Counted from the stretch's first letter, positions 719 through 49,455 are shown. The stretch: DNA of 64,000 bases from a virus (IMGVR_UViG_3300010356_003454:72820-136819); one strand, 5' to 3'. Program-made: numbers and translations. The notes: generated by a model not told the origin, from the sequence alone.

Positions 719-1077
719 AAAAATTAATACTACTATCTTTTATAATATTTTTATGGGGATGCGGAAATTCTGCAAACAGAGAAGAACCCATAATGACAGA
801 TTCAACTTCTGTGTCATTAGAATTATCTGATACTACTCTTTATCCTGAAGAATATGTTGAATCACCTGCAGAAGAGAGCGTTGCTCAATTAGATTCTCAA
901 AGAAAATTATTAAGAGATACTATGAGAAGCGATTCTATTTCTGAAGAATCCGAATCTGAAAGGCCATTTCAGATATCTAAATTAGATACTATATCTTTGC
1001 TTCCGGAGATTAGAAGGAATAAAGAAATTATTAAGCAACAACAAGAAATTCTTGATTCTCTGATTAAGAAGAAATGA
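715..1077 (+). CDS. putative lipoprotein (possible o-spanin-like partner)
   Basis: Signal peptide ending LWGC (lipobox-like Cys). The start is embedded in the stop of the upstream TM/coiled-coil gene. S/E-rich. Confidence 0.3.
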   Translation: MKKLILLSFIIFLWGCGNSANREEPIMTDSTSVSLELSDTTLYPEEYVESPAEESVAQLDSQRKLLRDTMRSDSISEESESERPFQISKLDTISLLPEIRRNKEIIKQQQEILDSLIKKK

Positions 1078-1153
1078 TGTTATAAAAATCCTGCAAAAAT
1101 GTTAGTATTTATAGTGATATATAGACTATAAATCAAAAATTAATGTTATAATT

Positions 1154-2527: not shown

Positions 2528-2549
2528 AAACCTATTTCTTAAATCTAGA

Positions 2550-2576
2550 GGGAAGTCATATCGGCTTCCCTTTTTT
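2550..2576 (+). terminator. rho-independent terminator
   Basis: gggaag-N9-cttccc hairpin followed by TTTTTT, directly after the stop at 2527. Confidence 0.5.
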
Positions 2577-2604
2577 ATTGATATATAAAGAAAAAGTATA
2601 CTTC

Positions 2605-3039
2605 ATGAGAGCTAAAACTGTAAATGAAGATCAAAATTTCGAAAGAGGTAGGACTGCTAAAGCAGCTTTAGGTATTGGTGGGATAAATCTCTATGATTTA
2701 TACCAGGAAAGAATGGAGGAATTGGAAAGAGAAATATCAATGTCTAAGATTAATGCAGATACAGAATGGGGAGAATATCTTAGAGAGAATTTTGTTGGAA
2801 AGAAGATTACAGCACATATGACTCGAATGGTTACATTTAATATAAAGACAAAACAAAAATCGATAGATTCAGAAACTAAATATGGGGAATTTACTATTGT
2901 GGTACAAGATATTAAACCAGGAGAATCATTTAGTGATGCTATAGGTAGAAATGTGGAGATATCTCCACAAGCTATTGTGGCTGATATGGAAGGAAAGATA
3001 TACACCATGAGACTACATCAAAAAATCTATGTTGAGTAA
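2605..3039 (+). CDS. MRAK/FERG-leader family protein
   Basis: N-terminus MRAKTVNEDQNFERGRTAKAALGIGG matches the leader shared by more than 20 paralogs. The ATG at 2605 lies inside the tracked ORF, which starts at a TTG. Confidence 0.6.
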   Translation: MRAKTVNEDQNFERGRTAKAALGIGGINLYDLYQERMEELEREISMSKINADTEWGEYLRENFVGKKITAHMTRMVTFNIKTKQKSIDSETKYGEFTIVVQDIKPGESFSDAIGRNVEISPQAIVADMEGKIYTMRLHQKIYVE

Positions 3040-3407
3040 TGAGGGCTAAATTTGTTAATGAAAAAATGGATTTTGAAAGAGGCATCCATCCTAAACAGGC
3101 TTTGGATGTTGGCGGGATTTGTTTGGGAGAGGAGAGATGGAAAATGAAGAAGAAATTGGAGGACGATTGGAAATTCTTATTATTAACTCTTCTAGATGGT
3201 AAGACCATTTCAGCTCAGATGAATAAGAGATCCGCAAATGGCGGGAAGCTAACTGGAAAAGATACTTGGGGTAATTATACAGTTACTATTGAAGACTGGG
3301 AGGTCCCCGATATTGATGATATGGGGATCAATATAATAGGAACGGATAAAGAATACTATATTCTTCCTATTGATGATAAAAAGATATACATACATAATGC
3401 GCGCTAA
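3039..3407 (+). CDS. MRAK/FERG-leader family protein
   Basis: N-terminus MRAKFVNEKMDFERGIHPKQALDVGG. Confidence 0.6.
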   Translation: MRAKFVNEKMDFERGIHPKQALDVGGICLGEERWKMKKKLEDDWKFLLLTLLDGKTISAQMNKRSANGGKLTGKDTWGNYTVTIEDWEVPDIDDMGINIIGTDKEYYILPIDDKKIYIHNAR

Positions 3408-3945
3408 ACGAGTTCCATATAAGGCATACATATTCGATTTTGATGACACGTTGGTAAAAACTGATGCAAAGGTTCATGTTCTTAGAGATGGAAAACGTAT
3501 AAAATCTCTAACTCCTACAGAATTTAATCACTATATCTCTCAACCAGGAGAAACATTGGATCTAGAAGATTTCGTGGATCCAAGAATAATTATGAATGCT
3601 AAAAAATATAAAATGTGGCCTGCTCTTCAGAATATAGATGCTGCTAGAAAAATGGGAAGATCATCTTCAGATATATTCATTCTTACAGCTAGATCTCATA
3701 GAGCTCAACAGGCAATACACAATTACTTAACGAATAATGGAATTGATATTCCCTTAGAAAATGTCATTACTATCGGAACTGATTCAGATGAAGGATATGA
3801 TATTGCAGAGGAGAAGGGTAAGGTTTTACAGGATCTCAAAGACAGATATGCTGATGTATTCTTCTATGATGATAGTCCTGATAATATAGAGCTTGCTTCT
3901 AAAATTGGTGGCATTAAAACCAGATTAATTGATTGGAAAAAATAA
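3397..3945 (+). CDS. HAD-superfamily hydrolase (phosphatase/nucleotidase-like) with MRAK N-terminus
   Basis: Starts MRAKRV. HAD motif I is FDFDDTL. A Thr/Ser motif (ILTARSH) and a DD motif (FYDDSPDN) follow. Confidence 0.5.
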   Translation: MRAKRVPYKAYIFDFDDTLVKTDAKVHVLRDGKRIKSLTPTEFNHYISQPGETLDLEDFVDPRIIMNAKKYKMWPALQNIDAARKMGRSSSDIFILTARSHRAQQAIHNYLTNNGIDIPLENVITIGTDSDEGYDIAEEKGKVLQDLKDRYADVFFYDDSPDNIELASKIGGIKTRLIDWKK

Positions 3946-6563: not shown

Positions 6564-8006
6564 ATGATTATTTCAATTGAGCAAAGACAGTCCAAATTAA
6601 TTGTTTCCCATATTAATAAAGAGGGAAATCTTGCTTATATGCAATTGAATATTCCTGTTTCCCATCAGTATTCCTATGTCTATTCAAAAAGTGCTGCAGG
6701 TGCTTTGCACGGAATTAAATCTTGGGATGGTAAACCTGTTAGAAAGGTTCCTGCTCCGTTTCTTTCCAGGCATCGTATTCAGGAATTTTTTATGGATGCG
6801 GGTGATCAATTAACGGCTCCTCTTTTCGAAAGAAATATGCCTAATCTATATTCTTGCGATATAGAGGTTGATGTAACTGATGATGGATTCGCAGAAGCTT
6901 CTGATGCTCGAAATAGAATTAATTCAATTGCTTGGTCTCATTATCCTGATGTAACAGTCTTTGGCCTGAAAGATTTATCAGGAGAACAATGTAACGAAGT
7001 CGAGACCGAAATAAACAATCACTTAAAACCTATTGGAAAGGAGTATAAGTTTGTTTATAAGAAGTATGAGAGCGAAAGCGATATGCTTTATGATTTTCTA
7101 TATAATTATGCTCGTCATGCTCCCCTAATTACTGGATGGCACTTTTGGAATTACGACTGGAGGTATATCTATAATAGGTGTAAGCGTCTTAATTTGGATA
7201 TTTCTTGGATGTCTCCGACTCGTCAGTGGTATAAGCATAAAATTATGGATCGGAACAACAGGGCTGATATATTTCTCCCCCAGCATAAGCTTATAGTTGA
7301 CTATATGGAGATTTATAAGAAGTGGGATAGGGTAATTGATCCAAAAGAGAATAACTCGTTAGACTTCGCTGCAGAGGCCGCATTAGGCATCACAAAAGTT
7401 AAGTATTCTGGAACATTTCAGGATCTCTATAGGGATTATCCTAAACATGTTTTCTACAACGCTATTGATACAATTCTTGTTGAGGAGATACACAATAAGC
7501 TAAAGACCATGGAGACATTCCTCGGTCTTGCTAATATCAATAGAGTTGAGGCAATGAATGCTTTTTCTCCTATTGCCATGCTCGAAGCAACGGCAACAAG
7601 ATATGCTTATAAAAGAGGCCTAGTTTTTCCAAAGGGCAATTTTGATAAAACTCGTGAGGATTATGAAGGGGCATTTGTATTTAAACCTACCCCCGATTTA
7701 TATGGTTGGGTGGCTGCTTTTGACTATGCTTCTCTTTATCCAAGTATTATGAGGCAGTTTAAGATTTCAATGGAAAATTTTGTGGGAAAGAATAAAGACT
7801 ATCAACCAAAACCTCATGAGATAAAATGTTCAAGCGGAGCTATTTTTGATGCTTCGGTAGAACCACTTCTTCCAGAGATACTTACTGATTACTATGCTCA
7901 GAGAAAGGAGGCTCAAATGATTGCCAAAAAAGCTGAGATTGAGGCTAATGAATTGAAAATGATCCTTAAAAAACGACTTAGTTCTGCACAAAAATCATTA
8001 TCTTAA
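6564..8006 (+). CDS. family B DNA polymerase, N-terminal part (3'-5' exonuclease + motif A only)
   Basis: Exo I is CDIEVDV, Exo II is WNYDWRYI and Exo III is YNAIDT. Pol motif A is FDYASLYPSIM, as in T4/RB69 gp43. The ORF ends about 95 aa after motif A and has no motif B (KxxxNSxYG) or motif C (YGDTDS). Confidence 0.75.
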   Translation: MIISIEQRQSKLIVSHINKEGNLAYMQLNIPVSHQYSYVYSKSAAGALHGIKSWDGKPVRKVPAPFLSRHRIQEFFMDAGDQLTAPLFERNMPNLYSCDIEVDVTDDGFAEASDARNRINSIAWSHYPDVTVFGLKDLSGEQCNEVETEINNHLKPIGKEYKFVYKKYESESDMLYDFLYNYARHAPLITGWHFWNYDWRYIYNRCKRLNLDISWMSPTRQWYKHKIMDRNNRADIFLPQHKLIVDYMEIYKKWDRVIDPKENNSLDFAAEAALGITKVKYSGTFQDLYRDYPKHVFYNAIDTILVEEIHNKLKTMETFLGLANINRVEAMNAFSPIAMLEATATRYAYKRGLVFPKGNFDKTREDYEGAFVFKPTPDLYGWVAAFDYASLYPSIMRQFKISMENFVGKNKDYQPKPHEIKCSSGAIFDASVEPLLPEILTDYYAQRKEAQMIAKKAEIEANELKMILKKRLSSAQKSLS

Positions 8007-37095: not shown

Positions 37096-37611
37096 ATGAG
37101 AGCAAAAACTGTTAATGAGAATAATCAATTTGAAAGAGGACAGGATCCTAAAGATGCTATGGATATAGGAAGATACAAAGATCTTAAGGATAAAGATTTT
37201 GATATATGGAATTTTTTTCGATTTCTTCAGTTTAAAGAACATTCTGAAAGTAATGGAGTAACTTTTTATTCAAGAGGTGGGGGACAAGATGAATGCTATG
37301 ATTTTAAAAGAATTTATTATTTCGATGAATATAACTGGATTTCTGATGAAGAAATAATGGATATATTTAGTAGTATTAATAAAAAAGAGCTTCTTAAAAT
37401 TTCGGATAATATAGAGTTATTAGCTTTTAAAGGATCTACTCAACAGAGCACATATTCTTTCCAAGTAGTATTTAAGGGCGATTATCAAGATTATATGGAT
37501 AGGGGGGAGGAAGAGACTATTGAAAAAATAGAAGAATATATTTCAGAATACTTCACTGAAAATTCCGAAGAATTTATTAATTTTGAGGATGAAGAATATG
37601 AAGATGAATAA
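37096..37611 (+). CDS. MRAK/FERG-leader family protein
   Basis: MRAKTVNENNQFERGQDPKDAMDIGR. Confidence 0.55.
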   Translation: MRAKTVNENNQFERGQDPKDAMDIGRYKDLKDKDFDIWNFFRFLQFKEHSESNGVTFYSRGGGQDECYDFKRIYYFDEYNWISDEEIMDIFSSINKKELLKISDNIELLAFKGSTQQSTYSFQVVFKGDYQDYMDRGEEETIEKIEEYISEYFTENSEEFINFEDEEYEDE

Positions 37612-37627
37612 AAATAAAAAAGAGGAA

Positions 37628-38128
37628 ATGAAACTAGTTGCTGAATCCCTAAATGAAATAAAAAATAGGGAAAAATTGATTAAAAGAAGGGAAAAATTAT
37701 TATCCGACTTAGAAAAAGCAAGATCTAATCATAAAAAAGCAGTGGATAGAAAGTCAGAATTTATTGAAAAATATGGAGAGGACGCTTGGTGGAATAATCT
37801 AAGCTATTACAAAGATGGGTATAATGCTTGGAAATATGAGAGAATGAGATATCCCGGAAAGGCTGCTTGGAATGGGGAAGGGCCCATACAGAGAGCGATA
37901 AATAATACATTTATTAAGAAATCCAATATTGAGGAGGAACTTAAAGAAATAGAGGCTAAATTATCTGGGGAGCAGGGGGAGACTGAATTAATGAATGATA
38001 AAGATGTATATATACCTGGGGTTTCGGAATATGACCCAGATCTGGATTATAAATATGCAATGACACATCCGGGCTATAAAGGACCCCCTGGAGGACCATA
38101 TACAAATTATTATAACGATCTGGATTAA
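37628..38128 (+). CDS. MKLVAESLNE-leader family protein
   Basis: Starts MKLVAESLNE, a second leader type shared with the genes at 47297 and 47948. AGAGGA lies upstream of the ATG. Confidence 0.45.
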   Translation: MKLVAESLNEIKNREKLIKRREKLLSDLEKARSNHKKAVDRKSEFIEKYGEDAWWNNLSYYKDGYNAWKYERMRYPGKAAWNGEGPIQRAINNTFIKKSNIEEELKEIEAKLSGEQGETELMNDKDVYIPGVSEYDPDLDYKYAMTHPGYKGPPGGPYTNYYNDLD

Positions 38129-38157
38129 TTTTTTCTTAAATTTTAACGTTTTTTCTT

Positions 38158-38187
38158 CCCAAACATCGTTGGTGTTTGGGAATTTTT
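38158..38187 (+). terminator. rho-independent terminator in a conserved module
   Basis: cccaaaca/tgtttggg stem followed by T-run. Preceded by AATTTTTTCTTAAATTTTAACG, which is identical to the sequence at 49742. Confidence 0.5.
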
Positions 38188-38220
38188 GTTTATATTTATA
38201 GTGTAATTAAACTTAGTGAG

Positions 38221-40626
38221 ATGAAAAAATTATATTTAGTGATCTACATTTACACAGATTACAGGAATTACAAAATTGGAAAAGCTGCTAGATATGCATC
38301 TTCACCCGAAGAAGCAGCAAAAATTCGTATTTCGGAACAAACTACAGCAGCTACTTATGGTAATTGGAAATTAGTAGATGTATTGGTGATTTCCAGAGAA
38401 GGCCTAGATCCTTTATTTGTAGAAGCATATATTCATAATCGGATACAGGAATTGGGATATGAAAGACTTCATCGTAATGTCCAGTTTTCAGAAAAAGATA
38501 TTAAAGAAGGCCTTTCAGAATGGTTTAATTTTAGAAAACTTAATGAATTTAAGGTAAAGCGTCTTATACGCGAAATTTTTTCTGAGATTAATCATGCATC
38601 AGGCCAGAAATTTTATATCCCAAGATTTTATCAAGCTCTGGTAAAGGCTATTACTTTAGATAAAATAGAATCTGGATTAATGGAATCGGATTCGATAACA
38701 ATAGCATTGGAGCTTGCTCCGAGATTTGGAAAAACCCTATGGGCATTAGATCTATTTAATGAGTTAAGATATTTAGGAATTAATGTTTTGATCCTCCCAA
38801 CTTTTGTATTATCCTCGACTTCTTCTTTTACTAAAGAGATTACAAGTTTTGGTGATTTCGAACATTTTTATCTTTTGGATTCATCGGATTCAGAATTTGA
38901 TAAAAAACTTAAAGAATCGAAGGAATCAGGAAAGATAATGGTTATTGGGGTTTCTATGCATATGTCAGAGGATTCTTTGAAAAAATATAAAAAATCAATG
39001 AGCATCATTAGCAAAGATAGGATTATGTCTATTGTCGATGAGGCTGATTTTGGGGCTCATACAGAATCAAGCCGGGAAGTTTTGAATGCGGTAGATTCAA
39101 AAATAACGCTTTTGATGACGGGTACTGCTATTGAAAGAGCTATCAAAGGGCTTGTATTTATCCAAAATAATATAATTATTTGGACTCAGACAGATATGCA
39201 AATGGTTAAAAAGGGAACTCATCCTATTCTTCAATATATTGGGGATGGGGACAAACAATTTTCCAACAGGGTTAATTCAGTTTTGAAAAAATATACAATA
39301 GAAGAAGCAAAAAAAAGCTGTGCTAATCTTCCAGAAATAGAAATGCTTAAATTAAATCTTTCAAATATTTCTATTTTGCAAGAAATGCAGGATATTGAAT
39401 TAAGAGGTAAATGGACAAAAATTCTTACTGATGTTAATCAGAGCAAATCTATTATAAAAACAGTCTATAAGGGCCTTTTCGATTTCCCGAATATGGAATT
39501 TGATAATCCCGATCTAAAGAATATGAGCAAAATTTATCTTCGGAAAAAATGCAGGTTAGGAGTTACTATGATTTTTGGAGGATTTCCAAACAAAAAAGAG
39601 CAAAAAGCTTTTGTAAAATTCCTTCAAACCATACTAGGTGATAATTTTGAGGTTTATGAAATAAATGGAGATGTAACTACAAATAAAAAAGCGGAAGAAA
39701 AAGCAAAAAGAATTATCGCCAAAAATAAATTAAATAGGGAAGAAGGAGTGGATAGACAGATAATCTTTGTTTCCAAGGATATGGCTTCTCGAAGTTTTTC
39801 AATTTCCGAAATTGATACTGTAATACTTATGTATGACAGGGGAATGATCAATTCAACCGCCCAGAAAATCTCAAGGGCATTTACTCCTGGTAATAACTTA
39901 TATGACGAAGAGAAATTGGTTTCACACGTCGTTAGTTTAAGCCTGGATGCATCAAGAGAACACTGTCCTATTGATCTTTACATAATTCAGGAGGCAGCTA
40001 GAATTGGGGAATATGATCCAAATGGATCTATAGAGGGTCCAATTAAGAACGTAGCTTCCTGCTATAATATCTTCCAGAATACAGATAATGGATTTCTCCC
40101 AATAGAAATGGATGACTATTCCCAATTCTTGATTGAAGGAGCAGGATCTGATTTATTAAGAATTGCTAGCTCAACAGTAGATGTATCAGATCTCGGATCC
40201 ATAATTCTTTCGATGGATCAGGAAATGATAGATTTTTTGGATCTTGCATCTCCTAATGGGTCTAATAAACAAAAATCTAAAGGCAGAACGGAGATATCTG
40301 TTAATGAGGTGAAGACCTATTATAATAATCATAGAGGTCCAAATGATGAAAAAATAAAAACATTGGAAGAAAAATTATCAGAAGTTCTCAGAGATATTAA
40401 CTATTGTGTGCCAGATTTAGTTATGCTTGATGATTATAGACATGATAATATTTCGGATATAATTGGAAATCTCTATAATATGCCTGAAATATACAAAGAT
40501 ATTGAAGAGGATTTAGGTTTTTCTATAGTCCTTGCAAAATATTTACTTCCATATCTTAATCATAGACTTCTTAATACAGCAATAGAAATTTTTATTAAGG
40601 AAGAGGATAAATTTTTCATTATATAA
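38221..40626 (+). CDS. T5orf172/GIY-YIG-like N-terminal domain fused to SF2 DEAD-type helicase
   Basis: N-terminal YLVIYIYTDYRNYKIGKA...EWF is T5orf172-like. Walker A is APRFGKT. Motif II is VDEADF. Motif III is LLMTGTA. Motif VI is QKISRAF. Confidence 0.55.
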   Translation: MKKLYLVIYIYTDYRNYKIGKAARYASSPEEAAKIRISEQTTAATYGNWKLVDVLVISREGLDPLFVEAYIHNRIQELGYERLHRNVQFSEKDIKEGLSEWFNFRKLNEFKVKRLIREIFSEINHASGQKFYIPRFYQALVKAITLDKIESGLMESDSITIALELAPRFGKTLWALDLFNELRYLGINVLILPTFVLSSTSSFTKEITSFGDFEHFYLLDSSDSEFDKKLKESKESGKIMVIGVSMHMSEDSLKKYKKSMSIISKDRIMSIVDEADFGAHTESSREVLNAVDSKITLLMTGTAIERAIKGLVFIQNNIIIWTQTDMQMVKKGTHPILQYIGDGDKQFSNRVNSVLKKYTIEEAKKSCANLPEIEMLKLNLSNISILQEMQDIELRGKWTKILTDVNQSKSIIKTVYKGLFDFPNMEFDNPDLKNMSKIYLRKKCRLGVTMIFGGFPNKKEQKAFVKFLQTILGDNFEVYEINGDVTTNKKAEEKAKRIIAKNKLNREEGVDRQIIFVSKDMASRSFSISEIDTVILMYDRGMINSTAQKISRAFTPGNNLYDEEKLVSHVVSLSLDASREHCPIDLYIIQEAARIGEYDPNGSIEGPIKNVASCYNIFQNTDNGFLPIEMDDYSQFLIEGAGSDLLRIASSTVDVSDLGSIILSMDQEMIDFLDLASPNGSNKQKSKGRTEISVNEVKTYYNNHRGPNDEKIKTLEEKLSEVLRDINYCVPDLVMLDDYRHDNISDIIGNLYNMPEIYKDIEEDLGFSIVLAKYLLPYLNHRLLNTAIEIFIKEEDKFFII

Positions 40627-40676
40627 TCGTTAACTTTACGAAATATTTATTATATTTAAGTATAAATTATAACTAA

Positions 40677-41942
40677 GTGAGTAACTTTAATAAATATTGG
40701 ACTGCTAGGGGGAACTCAAAAAAAGCCGAGGTTTTTACCCCGTCTTTTTTAGTCAGAGAAATGCTTGATAAAATTCCTGCAGAAATTTGGAGGAGTTCAG
40801 AAACTATATTTTTAGATCCTTGCTTTGGATCCGGAACATTCATAAAATGCATCATTGAAAAGCTAAGGGAATATGGACATAGTGATGAGAATATTTCTAA
40901 AAGGATCTGGGGAGTAGAAATTAATAGAAAATGGTATAATAGGGTAAAACATTTCAGGATTGGCGAGTATAATATAAGAAACATCTATTGTGTAGATGCT
41001 CTAAATACAAATATTTTAGATGGTATGAAGTTTGATGTAGTATGTGGGAATCCGCCTTATCAGGGGAAAAAATTAGGGGGTGGAGCTGGATCTGGAAATG
41101 CTATATGGCATAAATTTGTAGTAAATGCTTTTAATGCTCTAAAGGAGAACGGATACCTTTGCTTAATTCATCCTATAGATTGGAGAACTAATCTTTCGCA
41201 GAAAAAGATTGAATCTGCTAGGAAAATTTTGATGACGAATCAAATAGAATATTTAAAATTAGCATCAGCCCCATTCCCTGGTATAGGAGCTTATGTTGAT
41301 TGGTATATTCTGAAAAAACGTGAGAAAAAAGAAAATACTTTAATAGATTTTCTGGATTGCCAAAAAAATGTTTTTTTAGATAATAAATTATTTCCTCTAT
41401 ATTCTTATAACAGCGATACTGTAAATTCAATAAAATCGAAAGTTTTAATGGATGCTACAAATAATCTAAATATGAGGAAACCATTTCACGGGTTAACTAT
41501 ATTAGATAGGTCTAAGCCAAAAGGAAAATATAAATTTGCTCATGGAACCGGATATACAAAAAATGAATGGAAATATTATGATTATCCGCATATTCATCAA
41601 TATCATAAAAAGGTTATAATGTCTTCCGTTAGGATACCTAGAGCTATTTATGATGATGGGAATATAGGGATCGGGGATCATGTTCATTATATTTTGGTTA
41701 ATAATAAGGAAGAGGGGGAATTTCTAACCTCTGTGATAAATAGCAAGCTTGGTATATTTCTGCAAAAGATTTTCGTTACTACCTTTTGGGATGGCGAATC
41801 CTCTCATTGGAATAATCCATATCCAATCTCTAAATTAAAAATAGACAATAGGAAATTCGAATCGGATATAGAGATCTATGATTATTTTGGATTAAGTAAG
41901 GAGGAGAGAGAATACATTGATAAAGAACTAAGAACCAAATAA
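40677..41942 (+). CDS. N6-adenine DNA methyltransferase (Eco57I/gamma-class-like)
   Basis: Motif I is LDPCFGSGTF. Motif IV is CGNPPYQG. GTG start. An in-frame TAA lies immediately upstream. Confidence 0.65.
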   Translation: MSNFNKYWTARGNSKKAEVFTPSFLVREMLDKIPAEIWRSSETIFLDPCFGSGTFIKCIIEKLREYGHSDENISKRIWGVEINRKWYNRVKHFRIGEYNIRNIYCVDALNTNILDGMKFDVVCGNPPYQGKKLGGGAGSGNAIWHKFVVNAFNALKENGYLCLIHPIDWRTNLSQKKIESARKILMTNQIEYLKLASAPFPGIGAYVDWYILKKREKKENTLIDFLDCQKNVFLDNKLFPLYSYNSDTVNSIKSKVLMDATNNLNMRKPFHGLTILDRSKPKGKYKFAHGTGYTKNEWKYYDYPHIHQYHKKVIMSSVRIPRAIYDDGNIGIGDHVHYILVNNKEEGEFLTSVINSKLGIFLQKIFVTTFWDGESSHWNNPYPISKLKIDNRKFESDIEIYDYFGLSKEEREYIDKELRTK

Positions 41943-41950
41943 TTAAATTT

Positions 41951-42817
41951 ATGAATATTTTCGAATTTTTACTAACATCTATTTTAAACTTCATGGTTGG
42001 AGTGTTAATTGCCTATTATTGCACACGATTTTGGGCTATTAAAACAAGTCCTGGCAAATCTTTATTGGATCAGCTAGCAAAAGATACATATTCTTTTTTT
42101 CAGGAAAATGGGGGAATGGAAGTTAGCGAAAATTATGTATTTTTTCATGTTCATAATAATTTTTTATTAGATTCGATTTATGATTATTATAGTAAGGATT
42201 TTTTTAAGAAGAGAGATGAGATTCAAAGAAATACCGGATATTTGAATAAAAAATATAAGGATTTTTTTTATTGCGTAGATAATTTATATAAAGGAATAAA
42301 CCAATTTTATATGAGCTATAAAGCTCAGTCAAAATTAGCAGATCATTACAGAGAAGAACTTATAAATTATTTTTCGGGACCTAGTAAATGGGATATAAAA
42401 GTTCCATATATTCTTTATTTTTTAGACAAAATGACTGGAGAAAATGAGATTTTTAAAAATTTTAGAGAGAATTTTTTAGATTATTATTTAAAATTAGGAA
42501 AATATAAAGATGTAAATACCGTTTCATTCCAATATGATCCTCATGAAATGAAACAGATTTTAAATTTATTTATTTTAAATAAGGATTTTTTTAAAAAGAC
42601 TATAAAAGAATTGGAATTAGGAGTTTCTACTATAACTAGCGAAAAATCCTGCAGAAAATATTATAGATCTGGTGAAATAATAAAATTATTGGAGGATTAT
42701 GAGGATTGCAAAAATAAACTAACTAATATTGAATTAGATAATAAGAAAGAAATAAAATATCTTATAGGGAAGATTCGAAACCATAAGTTATATCAATCAA
42801 TAAATAGTAAAAAATAG
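41951..42817 (+). CDS. membrane-anchored hypothetical protein
   Basis: N-terminal TM helix. K/Y/F-rich. Confidence 0.35.
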   Translation: MNIFEFLLTSILNFMVGVLIAYYCTRFWAIKTSPGKSLLDQLAKDTYSFFQENGGMEVSENYVFFHVHNNFLLDSIYDYYSKDFFKKRDEIQRNTGYLNKKYKDFFYCVDNLYKGINQFYMSYKAQSKLADHYREELINYFSGPSKWDIKVPYILYFLDKMTGENEIFKNFRENFLDYYLKLGKYKDVNTVSFQYDPHEMKQILNLFILNKDFFKKTIKELELGVSTITSEKSCRKYYRSGEIIKLLEDYEDCKNKLTNIELDNKKEIKYLIGKIRNHKLYQSINSKK

Positions 42818-42840
42818 TATAAATTTCTTGAATATATAAT

Positions 42841-43056
42841 ATGGAAGATCGATGGTACACATATAAAGAAATCCTCCAATTATTTGGGATCTGTAAGCAG
42901 ACTCTTTATAACTGGAGGAATAATGGTACTATCGAATACAAAGAAATTACTAAAAAGACTTTCTTGTATAAGCTTCCAAAAGAGAAAAATATTCAAAAAA
43001 ATGGATTACAAGAAGATTTACGAATCGATAATAGCGAAAGCAAAGAGCGAGAATAG
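42841..43056 (+). CDS. Xis/MerR-like HTH DNA-binding ORF
   Basis: YTYKEILQLFGICKQTLYNWRNNGTI is HTH_17-like. The last 56 nt overlap the HNH gene in the +1 frame across an A7 run. Confidence 0.4.
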   Translation: MEDRWYTYKEILQLFGICKQTLYNWRNNGTIEYKEITKKTFLYKLPKEKNIQKNGLQEDLRIDNSESKERE

Positions 43057-43696
43057 GAATAAGGGAAATGGAATTTATTATGAATCTCATCATATAGTTC
43101 CAAAATGTCTATGTGGATCAGATACTAAAGATAATAGAGTTCTTTTAACGGCTAAAGAGCATTTTGTTTGTCATAAGCTACTGGCAAGGATTTATCCAGA
43201 TAGTAATGGTATACGATTTTCGTTCTTTTTAATGTGTCAATCCAGCGATAATCAAGAAAGATATCAAATTTCCTCCAGAGATTATGAATATGCTTGTGAA
43301 TTAAATCGCCAAGCTTGTTTGGGAAATAGATGGAGAAGAGGAAAGAAAGCTCCTCATTCGGAGGAAACTAAAAAAATACTAAGCAAACATTTTTCGGAAC
43401 ATCTACCAAAATATGCTTTTAAAAAGGGAATGATTCCTTGGAATAAAAATACATTAACAGAGGATCAGAAGAAATATATTAAAGAGCATACATTATCGAT
43501 GGAATATATTTCTAAAAAATTTGGGATATCCAAAAGACAAGCAGGAGATTTAAAACATGGACATATAGATGGAAAAAGATTGGGAGTTACTGAAAAAGAT
43601 ATCCAATATATCAGAGAGCATACTCAAAATTGTGTTCAAATAGCTAATAAATTTAAAACAACTCAGAGAATTGTGAGTATAATTAAAAATAGTTAA
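43001..43696 (+). CDS. HNH homing endonuclease
   Basis: YESHHIVPKCLCGSDTKDNRVLLTAKEHFVCH is an HNH motif. Confidence 0.6.
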   Translation: MDYKKIYESIIAKAKSENRNKGNGIYYESHHIVPKCLCGSDTKDNRVLLTAKEHFVCHKLLARIYPDSNGIRFSFFLMCQSSDNQERYQISSRDYEYACELNRQACLGNRWRRGKKAPHSEETKKILSKHFSEHLPKYAFKKGMIPWNKNTLTEDQKKYIKEHTLSMEYISKKFGISKRQAGDLKHGHIDGKRLGVTEKDIQYIREHTQNCVQIANKFKTTQRIVSIIKNS

Positions 43697-44143
43697 ATGG
43701 ACGAGATAAAAAAGAAGGAATTAGAGGAGAGAAGAAAGGCCCGAAGAAAAATCAGCGCGGAAGATTTTACTCCGATTGAATTAGTTAATGAAATGCTCGA
43801 TAAGTTACCTGCTGAAGTATGGGCCGATCCTAATAAGACCTTTTTGGATAACAGTGGAGGAAATGGAAATTTTGTTGTTGAAGTATTAAGAAGAAAATTA
43901 GAAAGGGGCCACGATCCTCTTCAGGCTCTGTCCACAATATATTCTGTAGAACTAATGTATGATAACGTTGAAGAGATGCATCATCGCATGTACTCAATTG
44001 TTAAAGATTTTCTCCATACTCAAGAAGATAAAGACAAGGCATTCAAAATAATCAAGGAGAATCTGGTCTGCCACGACGCATTGACCTGGGATTACGAAAA
44101 CTGGTGCTCACCAAATACTCATCACGCAGTTCCTCTTTTTTAA
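43697..44143 (+). CDS. methyltransferase N-terminal-domain paralog (lacks catalytic NPPY half)
   Basis: FTPIELVNEMLDKLPAEVW...FLDNSGGNGNF aligns with residues of the 40677 MTase (FTPSFLVREMLDKIPAEIW...FLDPCFGSGTF). The ORF ends before motif IV. Confidence 0.45.
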   Translation: MDEIKKKELEERRKARRKISAEDFTPIELVNEMLDKLPAEVWADPNKTFLDNSGGNGNFVVEVLRRKLERGHDPLQALSTIYSVELMYDNVEEMHHRMYSIVKDFLHTQEDKDKAFKIIKENLVCHDALTWDYENWCSPNTHHAVPLF

Positions 44144-44225
44144 CTACTCCTTAACGATATATTCTATCTATTTTTAAAACTATTATTTTATATCTTATAA
44201 TAGGGATATAATTTAAACTAATAAA

Positions 44226-44741
44226 ATGGAAAAAGTAAAAGTATCGATTAATGTAATGGTTCATCCTAATCTTGTTCCTATGATTGAAAAATTCAATAAG
44301 ATCGGGGGAATCTATGATAACTTAAATTCAGGTCTTTTAAGCGAACCCTTAATGCCTCTATTTCTATCCGAACATTTTGGAGAGCCTGTGGAGTTTATTA
44401 ATGGTAATGGAATAGATTACAGAACATCAATAACTGGAAAAACTATTGAAAATAAGGCACTAACTATGTCTAAAGGATCTTCGGATTTAAAAAATTTCGG
44501 GGAGGTAAAAGAGAATTCTGATTATCTTTCTATTTTTCATCCGGACGAAAATAGGTTTTTTTTAATGCCTATGAAGGAAGCTCAAAAATTTCTTATAAAT
44601 GAGGATATTACAAATAACAAAGAGCATGTCCCTTTCTGCAAAAATCTGATTCCTTCAAGCCGAATATCTAAGGCCTCAATTAATACTATGCATCTTTTAA
44701 ATCATTCCGAAGAAATAAGTCTTTCTTTATTGGATAAATAA
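44226..44741 (+). CDS. hypothetical protein
   Basis: ORF. Confidence 0.35.
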   Translation: MEKVKVSINVMVHPNLVPMIEKFNKIGGIYDNLNSGLLSEPLMPLFLSEHFGEPVEFINGNGIDYRTSITGKTIENKALTMSKGSSDLKNFGEVKENSDYLSIFHPDENRFFLMPMKEAQKFLINEDITNNKEHVPFCKNLIPSSRISKASINTMHLLNHSEEISLSLLDK

Positions 44742-44758
44742 AGAAAAAGTATCCCTTA

Positions 44759-45988
44759 ATGAGAGCTCGATTTGTACTTTACGAATTCGCTAAAAACAAA
44801 GATTCTAAATATTATGCTCCTGATTATCTTATACAGGAGCTTATGGATGCTGTTAACAAGTATGTTCCTCTCCATGAGATAGATCATATAGTTGAACCAG
44901 CTTCTGGCGACGGAGCGCTAATACCTTTTATTGATAAGATAGCTAATGCCTATAATATTGATACCAGCTATTATGATCTAAAACCAGATCCAGGCAATCC
45001 TCGTATTGAACAGCAAAACTTCTTAGACTATTCTCCAGAACCATATTTCAGTCCATCTAGGCTTGTACTCACAGGACCACCTTATGGGGAACCTGGAGCT
45101 ACAGCCAAACTATGGAAGCAGTTCGCTCAGAAGGCTTCAGAGGTGGCAGGATATGTCGCTTTTATCTCTCCGGTTACTTGGCTTGATGTGAAACATCCTG
45201 TTCCTCATCTAGAACTTATCTATCAGAAGGACATGGGGTGGGTTAAATTCAGGGGCAGCGAAGCTTTCGGCGGTGAAGACCATCCTGTTAAGACTGCTAT
45301 ACTTATCTATAAAACTATCAAAGAGCCACAAACTGAAGACTTTTCATTTATAGATAACGATTTCATTATTCAGGAGATCTATGGTCGTGATAACTTCAGG
45401 AATAGAAAATACGATTATTATATTCTCTCCTGGGGCCGTGATTCAGGCAGAGTTAATACCTCAGGAAGGTATCCTGATGGCCGACTATTTTCTAAGGCAA
45501 TTGGAATAAAGGTCTTGGATGAGGCTCGTAGGGATGATTTAGAAGCGTTTTTAGAGACTTTCGAACAGGACTATAAGGATAAGATCGCCAGATACTCAAT
45601 TACAACAGCTAATGTCTTAAGTGTGCCTCGTTTTAAGAGATTTCTCGGAAACGCTCTATATTCGGGGATGAATGAATCTATAGACTTCGAAAGAGAAGGG
45701 AATCCATACGAGAAATTACGTATCGGTCGTAAGGTAACAAGGCCTTATCCTCAAATGAAGCCGAAAGAATTTTTTCAATGGTATCAGTCTGAGGCCTTTC
45801 CATATTATGATTCCGATGAGTTCTCTTTTTCTAGCGTGCTTTCAGATCTTGTTAATGACGAGGAGTCTACAGATGAAGAACTTCGAGAGGTATGGACTGA
45901 AGAACTTGATGTTCCAGAAGAAGTTATAGATAAACTATTACCTATGCGGGGTTATTTCTTAGATTTCCGCTATATTCAGAACATATGA
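44759..45988 (+). CDS. MRAR-leader protein with methyltransferase-like fold (non-canonical GPPY) and C-terminal FERG module
   Basis: Leader MRARFVLYEF. Motif-I-like EPASGDGAL. TGPPYGE sits where NPPY would be. A C-terminal FEREGNPYEKLRIGR...RPYPQM...MRGYF module is paralogous to the 46607 C-terminus. Confidence 0.5.
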   Translation: MRARFVLYEFAKNKDSKYYAPDYLIQELMDAVNKYVPLHEIDHIVEPASGDGALIPFIDKIANAYNIDTSYYDLKPDPGNPRIEQQNFLDYSPEPYFSPSRLVLTGPPYGEPGATAKLWKQFAQKASEVAGYVAFISPVTWLDVKHPVPHLELIYQKDMGWVKFRGSEAFGGEDHPVKTAILIYKTIKEPQTEDFSFIDNDFIIQEIYGRDNFRNRKYDYYILSWGRDSGRVNTSGRYPDGRLFSKAIGIKVLDEARRDDLEAFLETFEQDYKDKIARYSITTANVLSVPRFKRFLGNALYSGMNESIDFEREGNPYEKLRIGRKVTRPYPQMKPKEFFQWYQSEAFPYYDSDEFSFSSVLSDLVNDEESTDEELREVWTEELDVPEEVIDKLLPMRGYFLDFRYIQNI

Positions 45989-46617
45989 AACTAGTACCAG
46001 AACATATAGATGAGGTAATGGGCTTCCAAAGAGGAATAGATCCTAAGGAGGCTATTGGTATAGGAAGGCTAGCGAATATACCTAGCGAAAAGATCCGTAA
46101 TGCTTTTGCATGTGTCCGCAATTATTCTCTTGAAGATCTTGAGGATATGTATAGAAGGATTAGAGCTAAATCTAATATCTCTCTTGATGGAGTTCCTATA
46201 GAGAAATTATCTAATCATGAATGGATAGAATTTAATAATAAAGTTGTTAATGGTATTAAATCTCTTAGGAGAAGAAAGGTAAAAGCGGTCTCTCCATTTG
46301 GAGAAGGCGATATCCTAAAAGTAGTTCATCACGGAAGGACTTATTTTGGAGTTTATGATGGAATAGACAAACATGGGAGGATTAAGGCAAAGGGGAATAG
46401 GGCTAGATTAGCATTTGGCTTAGACAGATATACTCTCGCAACTCCGGAAGAGGCAGAAGCTTTTAGAAAAGAAGCAATTGAAAGAGAGAAACAGAGATGG
46501 GATTTGCAAATTCGCCGAGTTAAAATGCTGCTTTCAATGGGATCTGCTAAACCGGAAGATCTAGAAAGACTTATAAGAGACTATAAAAATACATTCCGAG
46601 AAGATTATGAGGGCTAG
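45985..46617 (+). CDS. FERG-leader family protein
   Basis: MGFQRGIDPKEAIGIGR. Confidence 0.5.
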   Translation: MKLVPEHIDEVMGFQRGIDPKEAIGIGRLANIPSEKIRNAFACVRNYSLEDLEDMYRRIRAKSNISLDGVPIEKLSNHEWIEFNNKVVNGIKSLRRRKVKAVSPFGEGDILKVVHHGRTYFGVYDGIDKHGRIKAKGNRARLAFGLDRYTLATPEEAEAFRKEAIEREKQRWDLQIRRVKMLLSMGSAKPEDLERLIRDYKNTFREDYEG

Positions 46618-47293
46618 AAGAGTCATAGAATCTATCAATTTCGAAAGGGGAAAGGATCCTAAAACAGTTATGGATATAGGAAGGACTAAATATGCGTTTC
46701 CTGTCGAAGATATTATTTTCAGAGGGGGAAATGTAATATCTCCTGAAGAGGGCGATAAGTATTTAAGGACAGTTTTACCTAGGAGATTGAAGAGCGTTAT
46801 ATCCAGGCCAGGTGCAGTTTGGAATTACCCAAGATTCAAAGATGGCCTTCATTATGCAGATGCTAAATGGATCATGAGACAAGGCTATAGCGGAATTAAA
46901 TATAAGGGAACTTTTTATCCATTTCCTAAAATAGAGGGATTTGATTTCCAAAGGAGCGGTGAAGAAGAAATCGATGAATCTGTAAATTTCGAAAGAGGAA
47001 AAGATCCTAAAAAGGTTTTACGTCTTGGAAGAGTTCGTCCGTATCCTGATATGACTGTGGAACAATTCCAGAGATGGTTTAGAGAAGAAATAGTTCCTTA
47101 TTTAGATGATGATGGTGAACAGGCTATTGTAGATAATCTATTGATGAATGATTGGGAGGCTGATTGGGAAGTAGCTGAATATTTAAGGGGAAGGCATCTG
47201 TCGCCGGAGATTGTTGACGATTTAATGTATATGAGGGGCTACTTTAATGACAGAGAATATATAAAGAGACTATTTGACGAAAAATTATTTTAA
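46607..47293 (+). CDS. MRAR/FERG-leader protein with two FERG modules
   Basis: N-terminal MRARRVIESINFERGKDPKTVMDIGR. Internal VNFERGKDPKKVLRLGRVRPYPDM...MRGYF. Confidence 0.5.
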   Translation: MRARRVIESINFERGKDPKTVMDIGRTKYAFPVEDIIFRGGNVISPEEGDKYLRTVLPRRLKSVISRPGAVWNYPRFKDGLHYADAKWIMRQGYSGIKYKGTFYPFPKIEGFDFQRSGEEEIDESVNFERGKDPKKVLRLGRVRPYPDMTVEQFQRWFREEIVPYLDDDGEQAIVDNLLMNDWEADWEVAEYLRGRHLSPEIVDDLMYMRGYFNDREYIKRLFDEKLF

Positions 47294-47296
47294 GAT

Positions 47297-47941
47297 ATGA
47301 AGCTAGTAGCAGAATCACTTAATGAGGCCTTAAATGAGGGAGCTCTTATAAAATTTGGAAGAAGCACGCAGAGTTTGAAAGAGGAGTATCCTATTTTCAA
47401 GAACTTATCTGTTGCAATGATACTTGAAGCTCTTCAGAGAGTGAATTCTACTCATTTTACAGGAGGAAAATTAGATTTATTCAAGTTCTATGACTTTATA
47501 AAGAAATTTAGGGGATATACTAAATCCTTTAATGATATGAAGGAGGTTATGACTGAAATCGCTCCGGTTTTAGGTATTGTGGATCAGATTCGCTTTTCTA
47601 GAGAGGAAAGGAGCGAGATTAAATTTAAAGAGAAAGCTCTAAATGGAGAGGTTCCTATAGAGTATTTTGATGAGGCTGAGATTCCAGAGGATACTATAGA
47701 AGATGAGGATTATGTTGTTAGAAGCATGGGCGGGGATACTGAACCCGCTTTCTATAGATTTGATAGAGAACTTAATCAGAGAGAGCGAAATCTATTAAGA
47801 GTATCTTATGCCCTTAATCATGGTAATCCTGAAGTTAGCACATGGAGAACTTATCTTGGTGCAGTTCCGGCTAAAGTAGGATTTGTTCGAAGAAATAATA
47901 GAAGTTTTGATTATACAGCAGGACTTGCAAAAAAGAGATGA
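47297..47941 (+). CDS. MKLVAESLNE-leader family protein
   Basis: MKLVAESLNEALNEG. Confidence 0.45.
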   Translation: MKLVAESLNEALNEGALIKFGRSTQSLKEEYPIFKNLSVAMILEALQRVNSTHFTGGKLDLFKFYDFIKKFRGYTKSFNDMKEVMTEIAPVLGIVDQIRFSREERSEIKFKEKALNGEVPIEYFDEAEIPEDTIEDEDYVVRSMGGDTEPAFYRFDRELNQRERNLLRVSYALNHGNPEVSTWRTYLGAVPAKVGFVRRNNRSFDYTAGLAKKR

Positions 47942-47947
47942 TAAAAT

Positions 47948-48571
47948 ATGAAATTAGTAGCAGAATCACTTAAGGAATTCTTAGGAATTAATAGGCTGGA
48001 CGAATTTGAGAGATCCGGAGATCCTCATAAGACTATGGGTATAGGACTCGAACCAGTTATTAAAGACTGGATGAGAAAGAATACTCATTATAATGTTGAT
48101 GAGAAGCCAGCCGAATACTCATGGAGAAAACCTCCTACAGTCTACAGTCTCTTATGGCTTTCTGTGAAGCATAATCATCCGCAGTGGGTTAAAGCTCTTT
48201 TGCAAAAGGGATATGATCCTAATGAGAACGGTGGTGCTGCTCTAAGATGGGCTTGCGGTCTTGGTTATAAAGATATAGTAGGTCTCCTTCTTGATGCTGG
48301 AGCTGATCCAGATGCTAAAGGACCAAGCGGTCCTCAGGAGGCTTATGAATGGGCAAGGCGAGAAGGTCATAGAGATATTATTAAAATGCTGGATATGAGT
48401 AAGGCGGGATATACTTTTACAGATAAAGGTCCGGATTTTGAACTACCAGAAGAGCCAGAAGAAGAGTCTAAAAAGACCCCCGAAGCTCCTCCCGTTCCGG
48501 CTAAGCCCGTAGAGCGACCCGAAGAGGAAGAGGAAGAGGAAGAGGAAGAAGAAAAAGGAGGCTGGTTTTAA
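47948..48571 (+). CDS. MKLVAESL/FERSGDP-leader ankyrin-repeat protein
   Basis: Leader MKLVAESLKEF...FERSGDPHKTMGIGL. Ankyrin repeats (NGGAALRWACGLGYKDIVGLLLDAGADPDAKG). C-terminal poly-E tail. Confidence 0.55.
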   Translation: MKLVAESLKEFLGINRLDEFERSGDPHKTMGIGLEPVIKDWMRKNTHYNVDEKPAEYSWRKPPTVYSLLWLSVKHNHPQWVKALLQKGYDPNENGGAALRWACGLGYKDIVGLLLDAGADPDAKGPSGPQEAYEWARREGHRDIIKMLDMSKAGYTFTDKGPDFELPEEPEEESKKTPEAPPVPAKPVERPEEEEEEEEEEEKGGWF

Positions 48572-49455
48572 TGAAGGCTATGAGAGTCATAGAATCGGTA
48601 GAATTTCAGAGAGGAGCAGATCCATATACTTCTTTAGGTATAGGAAAGTCTACTCAAAGGGATTTTTCTGGTGGTAAAGAACTCATAGAATGGGCTTATA
48701 ATTTTCCTGCAGTATGGTCTAAGGGGGAGATCCCGGAATGGAATGATTCTGATTACATAATTAGAAAACCATTCGGCGGATACCTCGAAGAAGTCTATAT
48801 ACAGAGAATGAGGAATATAAAGCTTATAGTAATAAAATGGATTAAAGATAATATTACTATTAATGGAGAGCCTTTAAGCCTTAAAGAAGCTATGAATATG
48901 TTTGAAGAAATTCAGAAGTTCGTTATTAAGAATCTAGAAAGGGAACGGGGAATTAGAGAGAGCATAGATTTTCATAAAGGAGGTAATCCGCTGGATACGC
49001 TAGAGGTTGGCAGAATAGAGGAAAGAAAGGATGCAGCATATAGATCTTTTATGGATTGGCTTTCTACATACTCATTTAAGGAGGCAGATGTTATTGAAGA
49101 GACTTATGATCAACCTTATGGATTCTTTGGTGATGATGAAAAGGAGGCTTTGATATTTAATGGATTAACTGTTGATGAAGTTTCTAAGAAAACTCCAGAA
49201 GAAATGGAGAGATATTTCAAAATTGTAGAAGAGGTTTTCGGCCTCACTTTTTGGGCCGCTGAAATAGCTAAATTGGAATATGAAGAATATAAAACTATGC
49301 CAGAGGAGGATAAAGAGGAGCTGGAGCAAAAGATAGAAGATGATTTTGGAACATATAATTTTTTGGAATATCTTGTAAAGTATTTCATTAATAAATGGCC
49401 AGGAAAGGTAAAAATAAAAGATCCATATGAGAGCAAAAAGCGTAAACGAAGCTAA
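48571..49455 (+). CDS. FERG-leader protein with two modules
   Basis: N-terminal MKAMRVIESVEFQRGADPYTSLGIGK. Internal IDFHKGGNPLDTLEVGR. Confidence 0.5.
   Translation: MKAMRVIESVEFQRGADPYTSLGIGKSTQRDFSGGKELIEWAYNFPAVWSKGEIPEWNDSDYIIRKPFGGYLEEVYIQRMRNIKLIVIKWIKDNITINGEPLSLKEAMNMFEEIQKFVIKNLERERGIRESIDFHKGGNPLDTLEVGRIEERKDAAYRSFMDWLSTYSFKEADVIEETYDQPYGFFGDDEKEALIFNGLTVDEVSKKTPEEMERYFKIVEEVFGLTFWAAEIAKLEYEEYKTMPEEDKEELEQKIEDDFGTYNFLEYLVKYFINKWPGKVKIKDPYESKKRKRS

Follow-up and report, generated by a model that had tools for sequence, protein, structure and literature searches.

The window analyzed here is a 64,000-nucleotide (nt) stretch of viral DNA (IMGVR_UViG_3300010356_003454:72820-136819), with positions counted from its first letter, and our subject is a run of genes in it that surrounds a 148-amino-acid (aa) open reading frame (ORF) resembling one half of a DNA methyltransferase. 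A helicase gene and a complete gamma-class methyltransferase gene (MT1) lead the run, followed by a 288-aa orphan, a helix–turn–helix (HTH) gene, an HNH endonuclease gene, the 148-aa ORF itself, which we call the N-half, a 171-aa orphan and a 409-aa protein named here for its GPPY motif (Table 1). The locus is a conserved modification module with a stand-alone half-methyltransferase, plus a mobile HNH gene that has probably homed to the gene for that half. An earlier sequence-only reading of this DNA had picked out the same ORFs, all of which we recovered on the plus strand. It had described MT1 as a complete Eco57I-like enzyme with FGSGTF and NPPY motifs, the HTH and HNH genes as a pair, the 148-aa ORF as the N-terminal half of the MT1 fold without its catalytic half and the 409-aa protein as a methyltransferase-like core with GPPY. 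These descriptions hold up on the evidence given below, and the pairwise alignment that it proposed as a check detects similarity to MT1 in both of the other ORFs. Our comparison set comprised 25 distinct loci, taken from metagenomic and IMG/VR contigs as long as 405 kb, together with cultured phages; L-numbers denote the loci of relatives, and P-numbers denote proteins carrying the N-half domain.

Table 1. Positions of the genes and sequence features at the methyltransferase locus of the window
Feature	Position	Strand	Basis or remark
Superfamily 2 (SF2)/ResIII-like helicase, 816 aa, opening the conserved module	38176-40626	+	Pfam ResIII 1.6e-4
MT1, complete gamma-class (Eco57I-type) N6-adenine DNA methyltransferase, 421 aa (predicted)	40677-41942	+	Pfam, motifs
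MT1 C-half, residues 118-421	41028-41942	+	L010 homologue is a stand-alone gene
NPPY codons of MT1, putative module boundary	41049-41060	+	nucleotide comparison with L035
288-aa orphan, one N-terminal hydrophobic stretch or helix	41951-42817	+	sequence only
HTH_17 protein, 71 aa, an HNH companion in some phages	42841-43056	+	Pfam 8e-7
Predicted free-standing HNH homing endonuclease, 231 aa with the probable start at Met40 of the longest ORF	43001-43696	+	phrog_655 'homing endonuclease' 1.5e-42
Putative co-conversion tract, ~100% identical between window and L040	43188-43790	+	sliding identity
N-half, predicted stand-alone S-adenosylmethionine (SAM)-binding half of a gamma-class methyltransferase (motifs X, I-III), 148 aa	43697-44143	+	
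171-aa orphan ORF	44226-44741	+	slot occupied by HNH_3 in L038 and by T5orf172 in L039/L040
Methyltransferase-like domain of the 409-aa GPPY protein (ORF 44759-45988)	44759-45664	+	motif I EPASGDGA intact
C-terminal 'FERG' domain, ~100 aa, of the 409-aa protein	45674-45988	+	phmmer 6e-15 to 46607-47293

The N-half aligns with MT1 residues 17–100 at 38% identity (E 1e-14), and its PHROG matches are similarly short: phrog_21201 (156 positions, 'DNA methyltransferase', 1.3e-20) and phrog_4376 (134 positions). A search of 5.8 billion proteins returned more than 300 homologues at 57–94% identity, nearly all of them 133–157 aa long, and a profile search of 1.84 billion cluster representatives reached 123 clusters (50% identity) when cut at E<=1e-30 and 1760 when cut at E<=1e-10; among the best 150 profile matches, 138 measure 250 aa or less. 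Residues F24, T25, D51, G55, G57, D89 and N90 are invariant, and E85, H126 and A128 nearly so. The conserved columns correspond to the gamma-class elements that bind SAM, namely FTP (motif X), D-x-x-x-G-x-G-N-F (motif I), the acidic end of motif II and the H-D-A-L of motif III, to which the family adds a W-D-Y-E-N-W of its own and a terminal L-F. The ratio of nonsynonymous to synonymous substitution rates (dN/dS) against relatives lies between 0.10 and 0.23, with synonymous sites (dS) near saturation.

The AlphaFold2 model of the N-half (predicted local distance difference test 92.3, predicted template modeling score (pTM) 0.83) consists of an N-terminal helix and then three beta–alpha units, and its best structural matches are the N-terminal SAM-binding subdomains of CamA, DrdV, BsaXI, PglX/BrxX and the Type ISP enzymes LlaGI and LlaBIII; among viral models it resembles short phage 'DNA methylase domain' proteins, P-SSM2 Q58MW7 and Klebsiella phage KpV477 A0A1B1P8M5 among them. 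Direct residue counting places the end of the N-half in register with motif IV of MT1, HHAVPLF before the stop codon corresponding to VCGNPPY, and in both proteins 19 residues lie between the motif III leucine and the last aromatic residue; the N-half therefore stops exactly where catalysis would begin. It has no catalytic Asn, no motif IV of the form (D/N/S)PP(Y/F/W), no motifs V–VIII and no target recognition domain (TRD), and nothing catalytic lies downstream. An intron or frameshift that would link it to the sequence beyond was considered and rejected, given that homologues share the end point and that the next ORFs are unrelated. Taken together, the alignments and the structure model show an intact, selected and, by prediction, autonomously folding protein that keeps the SAM-binding elements, rather than a decaying fragment. 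Its family, which includes members in the cultured phages P-SSM2, S-SKS1, Aeromonas Ah1 and Klebsiella KpV477 and in Lak megaphages, is widespread and selected, and annotation everywhere calls its members 'hypothetical' or generic 'DNA methylase domain' proteins.

MT1 passes the Pfam cut-offs for Eco57I (1.5e-14, 54.9 bits against 25.3) and N6_Mtase (1.3e-10, 41.6 bits against 20.4) and presents its motifs in the order X (FTP), I (FGSGTF), IV (NPPY) and TRD region. With the methyltransferase part of the helicase–methyltransferase fusion in L004 it shares 31% identity, and its C-terminal region is homologous to other TRD-bearing C-halves, as we call the part of such enzymes that runs from motif IV through the TRD. 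By these features MT1 is a regular gamma-class N6-adenine methyltransferase, and we predict that it forms N6-methyladenine. At the nucleotide level, MT1 and the methyltransferase gene of L035 are 81% identical over window positions 40630-41060 (L035 1916-2346), a similarity that ends exactly at the NPPY codons and gives way to C-halves of unrelated types; a 42-nt motif-IV segment is also common to MT1 and L038 at 83% identity. Because the homology with L035 ends at these codons and the 42-nt segment recurs in L038, the segment encoding motif IV is, as far as sequence comparison goes, a recombination joint at which recognition halves are exchanged. MT1 residues 118–419 are also 41% identical (E 5e-73) to a stand-alone 299-aa C-half of L010, whose gene lies directly upstream of an N-half gene. 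As a separate observation, full-length methyltransferases of the MT1 clade carry a conserved Met just before KFDxxxGNPPY (window 41025-41060; also L004, L012, L024, L028, L032 and L034), the position at which stand-alone C-half genes start, and it is conceivable that internal initiation there could yield C-half isoforms.

Gene order in the relatives gives the N-half its context. In 23 of the 25 loci its gene comes after a same-strand gene of methyltransferase type or, in L031, is fused behind a C-half; L030, in which the 2.7 kb upstream hold no such gene, and L034, with the reverse order, are the exceptions. The stop codon of the methyltransferase or C-half gene and the start codon of the N-half gene usually abut or overlap. 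The recurring arrangement is a helicase and a complete gamma-class methyltransferase, then no, one or two C-half genes and finally the N-half. Helicase and methyltransferase form a single protein of 1186–1425 aa in L004, L007, L008, L014, L015, L022 and L038 and are encoded by separate genes in the window, L024, L025 and L029.

C-half genes encode 274–327 aa (193 aa in P-SSM2) and lack the SAM-binding half altogether. Each opens precisely at M(P)KFDxxxGNPP[YF], which corresponds to strand beta-4 and motif IV, and continues into a TRD of one of at least three types. Such genes occur in at least seven loci, among them L002, L004, L010, L011, L015 and L016, and in the cultured cyanophage P-SSM2, in which the gp036 C-half (MKFTLAIGNPPY...) overlaps the gp037 N-half. 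L015 runs fusion, C-half, C-half, N-half; L010 and L011 run C-half, C-half, N-half; and L016 has one C-half before the N-half. In L012, L018, L019, L028 and L032 the upstream neighbor has NPPY or NPPW without the glycine loop (GxG) of motif I. There are also single chains in which a C-half is followed by a linker and an N-half: L031, P0162 (listed in NCBI under a Paludibacteraceae metagenome-assembled genome), P0254, P0260 and gp077 of Aeromonas phage Ah1. The multiple alignment shows the circular permutation of these fusions directly, and a single-chain structure model of a natural fusion came out at low confidence (pTM 0.57). The resulting motif order, IV–VIII, TRD, X and I–III, is that of beta-class enzymes. 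Circularly permuted M.EcoKI-like adenine methylases in jumbo phages were described by Iyer and colleagues (PMC7824862), and beyond that general remark our literature search found neither split phage methyltransferases nor the GPPY motif.

The 409-aa protein is a more distant relative of MT1 (20% identity, E 1e-5); hhalign aligns its family profile with MT1 at E 5e-5 and brings motifs X, I, IV and V/VI into register. It matches phrog_799 'DNA methyltransferase' (9e-10) and PADLOC MTase_II (1e-6) and has no Pfam match at E<=0.1; between it and the N-half, BLASTP detects no similarity and profile comparison a weak one (E 3.5e-4). At its motif IV, encoded at 45074, Gly replaces the Asp, Asn or Ser that precedes PP(Y/F/W). 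G106, P107, P108 and Y109, together with the motif I residues E46, P47, G50, G52 and A53, are invariant in 11 sequences of 40–61% identity, and the gene evolves at a dN/dS of 0.12–0.33. The family is small, with only seven database homologues plus the copies in L038 and L039, in both of which the gene keeps its place downstream of the N-half. Judged by this invariance, GPPY is a fixed trait of a small clade-specific family, and the protein probably still binds SAM; to our knowledge, no active amino-methyltransferase has Gly at this position. L039 carries the methyltransferase-like domain as a separate 301-aa gene and the FERG domain as a separate ORF, and the FERG domain in the window is a fused copy of a domain that is repeated in downstream genes.

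That domain touches a wider pattern: positions 37583-49455 hold a cluster of paralogous genes with common short motifs and no family matches. An N-terminal M-K-L-V-A-E-S-L-N/K-E occurs in the paralogues at 37631, 47300 and 47951, and the FERG motif, (V/I)-I-E-S-(I/V)-x-F-x-R-G-x-D-P-x(4-6)-G, at 45674, 46628, 46976, 48592 and 48958, sometimes twice per protein; the helicase–methyltransferase fusion of L004 begins with a similar MILVCESLPQF. These motifs could be a common targeting or processing signal.

The HNH gene has a history different from that of its surroundings. Its longest ORF spans 42884-43696; because homologues start at Met40, the true start is probably the one in Table 1. The same HTH and HNH pair occurs in L001–L006 (phmmer 1e-26), and the HTH gene is called identically in L042. 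Compared with the copies in L039 and L040, the HNH gene of the window is 98% identical in nucleotide sequence (dS 0.07), whereas the N-half genes beside those copies are 77% identical and the other flanks are unrelated. The near-perfect identity with L040 covers the 3' two-thirds of the HNH gene and the first ~95 nt of the N-half gene (codons 1–31, up to motif X), falling to 50–70% past ~43790; on the left, homology begins at 42994, 7 nt before the HNH start. The gene is present in the distant L001–L006 group and in L039–L041 and absent from the otherwise syntenic L035 and L038. In the L001–L006 group it is flanked by remnants of the N-half 5' end, which in L002 lie beside the HNH cassette at 124-270, 1220-1309 and 1370-1474. 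Because near-identical copies stand amid diverged flanks, presence is sporadic and the tract reaches into the N-half gene, we regard the HNH gene as mobile; it is a predicted free-standing homing endonuclease with a co-conversion tract. Some 95 nt of the N-half gene appear to have been co-converted, and the cleavage site therefore probably lies in the conserved 5' (motif-X) region of that gene. In our proposed sequence of events, the HNH gene with its HTH companion would have recently entered just upstream of the N-half gene, carrying in the first ~95 nt of that gene.

The other end of the N-half gene has also received mobile genes. Directly after it, L040 (3165-3971) and L039 (1690-2496) carry a 249-aa T5orf172-domain gene, behind which lies a 55-nt remnant with 98% identity to the 3' end of the N-half gene in the window (44089-44143). 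The 3' side of the N-half gene is a second insertion site for mobile nucleases. The 171-aa orphan that occupies this slot in the window has no family match in Pfam, PHROG or PADLOC, and the same searches found none for the 288-aa orphan. The latter fills a variable slot between the methyltransferase and N-half genes; we rejected it as a diverged C-half, as it has no similarity to C-half proteins.

How these genes came to lie together was explained in the sequence-only reading by duplication of MT1, followed by decay or neofunctionalization and possibly seeded by invasion of the HNH gene, so that the 148-aa and 409-aa genes would be MT1 duplicates under truncation or mutation, pseudogenes in the making. 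Homology is indeed detectable among the three proteins, an HNH gene is adjacent, and true remnants of the N-half 5' end lie beside the HNH cassette in L002, but we consider this account extremely improbable. The N-half is a full-length member of a family of near-constant length in more than 300 homologues, under purifying selection with saturated dS and with a confidently predicted autonomous fold; GPPY is invariant in 11 of 11 family members at a dN/dS that likewise speaks against decay; and identities to MT1 of only 38% and 20% place each gene in its own family. Relatives without this HNH gene (L038 and L035) have the same gene order, which in L038 runs from helicase–methyltransferase to N-half to GPPY protein. 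What stands of the earlier interpretation is the common gamma-class fold and the position of the HNH gene among its bearers; recent duplication, decay and HNH seeding do not, and of the two fates it offered, neofunctionalization is nearer the truth. By sequence comparison, the N-half, the 409-aa protein and MT1 are distant homologues, not recent paralogues, and the HNH gene parasitizes a conserved gene; it did not seed the cluster.

The explanation that we favor, at somewhat better than an even chance, is that the N-half is a trans-acting SAM-binding subunit of split, circularly permuted adenine methyltransferases, a role that for the window we infer. We read it this way because the family is short and conserved, because its genes are placed after C-halves, because fusions run from C-half to N-half and because the C-terminal part of MT1 is homologous to the stand-alone C-half of L010. 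The stretch would then be a conserved DNA-modification module made up of helicase, MT1, N-half and a clade-specific GPPY protein, in which the N-half may supply the SAM-binding half in trans to subunits carrying motif IV and the TRD. One N-half could possibly serve several C-halves of different specificity; the partner of the N-half in the window may be encoded elsewhere in the genome, or the N-half may act with MT1. A broader version, which we hold only tentatively and think less probable than its negation, is that in T4-like and jumbo phages one SAM-binding N-half docks interchangeably on several catalytic/TRD halves, either stand-alone or released from full-length genes, so that swapping or adding a short C-half would change specificity, and that these loci are split-and-refuse intermediates on the way to permuted, beta-like enzymes.

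Several observations weigh against a trans-acting subunit. A six-frame scan of the 64 kb for [DNSGT]PP[YFWH] found no C-half gene and no ORF with a PP(Y/F/W/H) motif other than MT1 and the GPPY protein. A methyltransferase that has an intact motif I of its own precedes the N-half in the window, L007, L008, L014, L022, L024, L025, L029, L035 and L038; in about half of the loci, therefore, simple complementation leaves the retention of the N-half unexplained. L035 has two N-half genes (148 and 142 aa; 1006-3621) in tandem units of methyltransferase and N-half, separated by a 126-aa ORF and a 403-aa methyltransferase, which combines an N-terminal part of the window MT1 type with a C-half of the L002 type. 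The upstream proteins of L012, L019 and L028 carry a degenerate N-terminal region that might fill the docking site. Finally, the N-half domain is found behind an HNH domain in P0202, behind a beta-class-like methyltransferase in P0167 and ahead of ~200-aa C-terminal regions of unknown kind in P0151, P0177 and P0266, and the fusions to unrelated domains in P0151, P0167, P0177 and P0202 hint at a more autonomous role.

Such a role would make the N-half a SAM-binding protein in its own right: a SAM sensor, a sequestering protein or a decoy against Type I/ISP restriction or bacteriophage exclusion (BREX) systems. The invariant SAM-binding motifs beside an absent catalytic part would fit, as would the roughly half of loci, the window included, that have no C-half to complement, the joining of the domain to unrelated partners (P0151, P0167, P0177 and P0266) and the presence of PglX/BrxX and Type ISP enzymes among the nearest solved folds. 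We nevertheless judge it unlikely, given the near-universal place of the gene right behind a methyltransferase or C-half gene, frequently with stop and start codons that overlap, the C-half-to-N-half order of the fusions and the lack of any PADLOC or anti-defense family match beyond generic methyltransferase models. The SAM-binding decoy that the sequence-only reading suggested accordingly has less support than the role of split-methyltransferase subunit. A quite different emphasis treats the C-half genes and terminal N-half mainly as recombination cassettes, in which crossover at the KFDxxxGNPPY segment swaps specificity and the small ORFs are by-products. The halt of MT1/L035 homology exactly at the NPPY codons with unrelated C-halves beyond, the 83% motif-IV segment common with L038, the several TRD types in differing combinations and, in L004, a C-half that has the same C-terminal end as the fusion protein upstream all agree with it. 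As the whole explanation it is decidedly unlikely: exchange needs no protein-coding N-half under strong amino-acid constraint, and the placing of start codons exactly before beta-4 in many independent C-halves and the existence of fused C-to-N proteins are left unexplained. Cassette exchange and the split-subunit role are mutually compatible. Less probable again is that the N-half is an accessory or regulatory subunit of a complete helicase–methyltransferase, like the inactive partner of a heterodimer; it follows complete methyltransferases or fusions directly in at least 10 loci, stands in two tandem units in L035 and shows a stop/start overlap that suggests coupled translation, yet neither the loci with C-halves only nor the C-to-N fusions find an explanation there.

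The genes around the N-half sit in a piece of a large phage genome with nearly all ORFs on the plus strand and a G+C content of ~35%, which also encodes a family-B DNA polymerase, a ribonucleotide reductase, an NAD-dependent ligase and a CCA-adding enzyme. The 50,697 deposited phage records of INPHARED contain no close nucleotide relative, only trivial matches around 43055-43203, inside the HNH gene. A search for a longer contig containing the window turned up the identical protein on 1–1.7-kb contigs only. PADLOC run on the window proteins gave generic methyltransferase models and no defense or anti-defense assignment, and a promoter and terminator scan of 38–47 kb gave the same counts as shuffled sequence. 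A strong terminator-like hairpin (12-bp stem and T-run) at 38156-38182 overlaps the TTG at 38176 that is annotated as the helicase start codon. The helicase itself resembles the helicase parts of L022 and L024 (phmmer 2e-24 to 3e-29). In relatives in which helicase and methyltransferase are fused, the proteins carry T5orf172, ResIII/SNF2 and Eco57I domains; those of L015 (2563-6123) and L004 (1062-5099), in the 1186–1425-aa range, combine T5orf172/MUG113 (GIY-YIG-like), a ResIII/SNF2 helicase and an Eco57I methyltransferase with TRD. The polymerase ORF (6564-8006) encodes 480 aa only, comprising the exonuclease domain plus, of the 453 positions in the polymerase domain, the first ~150; it covers positions 99–499 of the 856 in phrog_262, and the gene that follows encodes the ribonucleotide reductase. 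The polymerase gene may be in pieces, with its C-terminal part encoded elsewhere. An ankyrin-repeat protein with a long poly-Glu tail is encoded at 47948-48571 (Pfam Ank_2 1.5e-17), and L004 likewise has an ankyrin protein a few genes downstream of its module.

Which restriction systems of its host a phage escapes is decided by its methyltransferases. If one conserved SAM-binding subunit does work with exchangeable catalytic and recognition subunits, phages would have a cheap route to new methylation specificities, and the split arrangement would illustrate in nature how methyltransferases become circularly permuted. Annotators should not dismiss as pseudogenes the short methyltransferase 'fragments' that lie beside homing endonucleases.

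Split or permuted methyltransferases and free-standing homing endonucleases are kinds already known, and the locus in the window is a variation on them. The N-half is like gamma-class enzymes of the Eco57I, M.TaqI and CamA type in matching their N-terminal SAM-binding subdomain in sequence and predicted fold, but it differs from them in ending at a degenerate motif IV with neither catalytic Asn nor TRD; the 409-aa protein departs in another way, with Gly in place of the motif-IV Asn, Asp or Ser and scores below Pfam thresholds. Naturally split DNA methyltransferases include M.AquI alpha/beta and M.EcoHK31I, and circularly permuted methyltransferase classes exist; the known split enzymes are C5-cytosine methyltransferases cut elsewhere than between motifs III and IV. 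The relatives of the N-half resemble them in that two adjacent genes encode parts of one catalytic domain, and they resemble permuted classes in that the order from C-half to N-half is the beta-class motif order and fused, permuted versions exist. In contrast to the C5 enzymes, the cut here falls between motifs III and IV of an amino-methyltransferase, and one N-half may go with zero to two C-halves, the window having an N-half alone. The fused proteins of relatives recall the Type ISP enzymes LlaGI and LlaBIII, which are also among the structural matches of the N-half, in joining T5orf172, a domain of a nuclease superfamily, to an SF2 helicase-like ATPase and a gamma-class methyltransferase with TRD. 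They differ in being phage encoded and in having a T5orf172/GIY-YIG-like rather than Mrr-like N-terminal domain, with no restriction function implied, and in the window helicase and methyltransferase are separate genes. T4-like phages carry free-standing homing endonucleases of the Seg and Mob type and genes in pieces such as Aeh1 NrdA, split by mobE. The HNH gene of the window is like the Seg and Mob genes in being intergenic, sporadic and near-identical between diverged flanks, with a putative co-conversion tract into its neighbor, and it is unlike them in its companion HTH ORF and in its target, predicted from sequence to be the gene of a half-methyltransferase.

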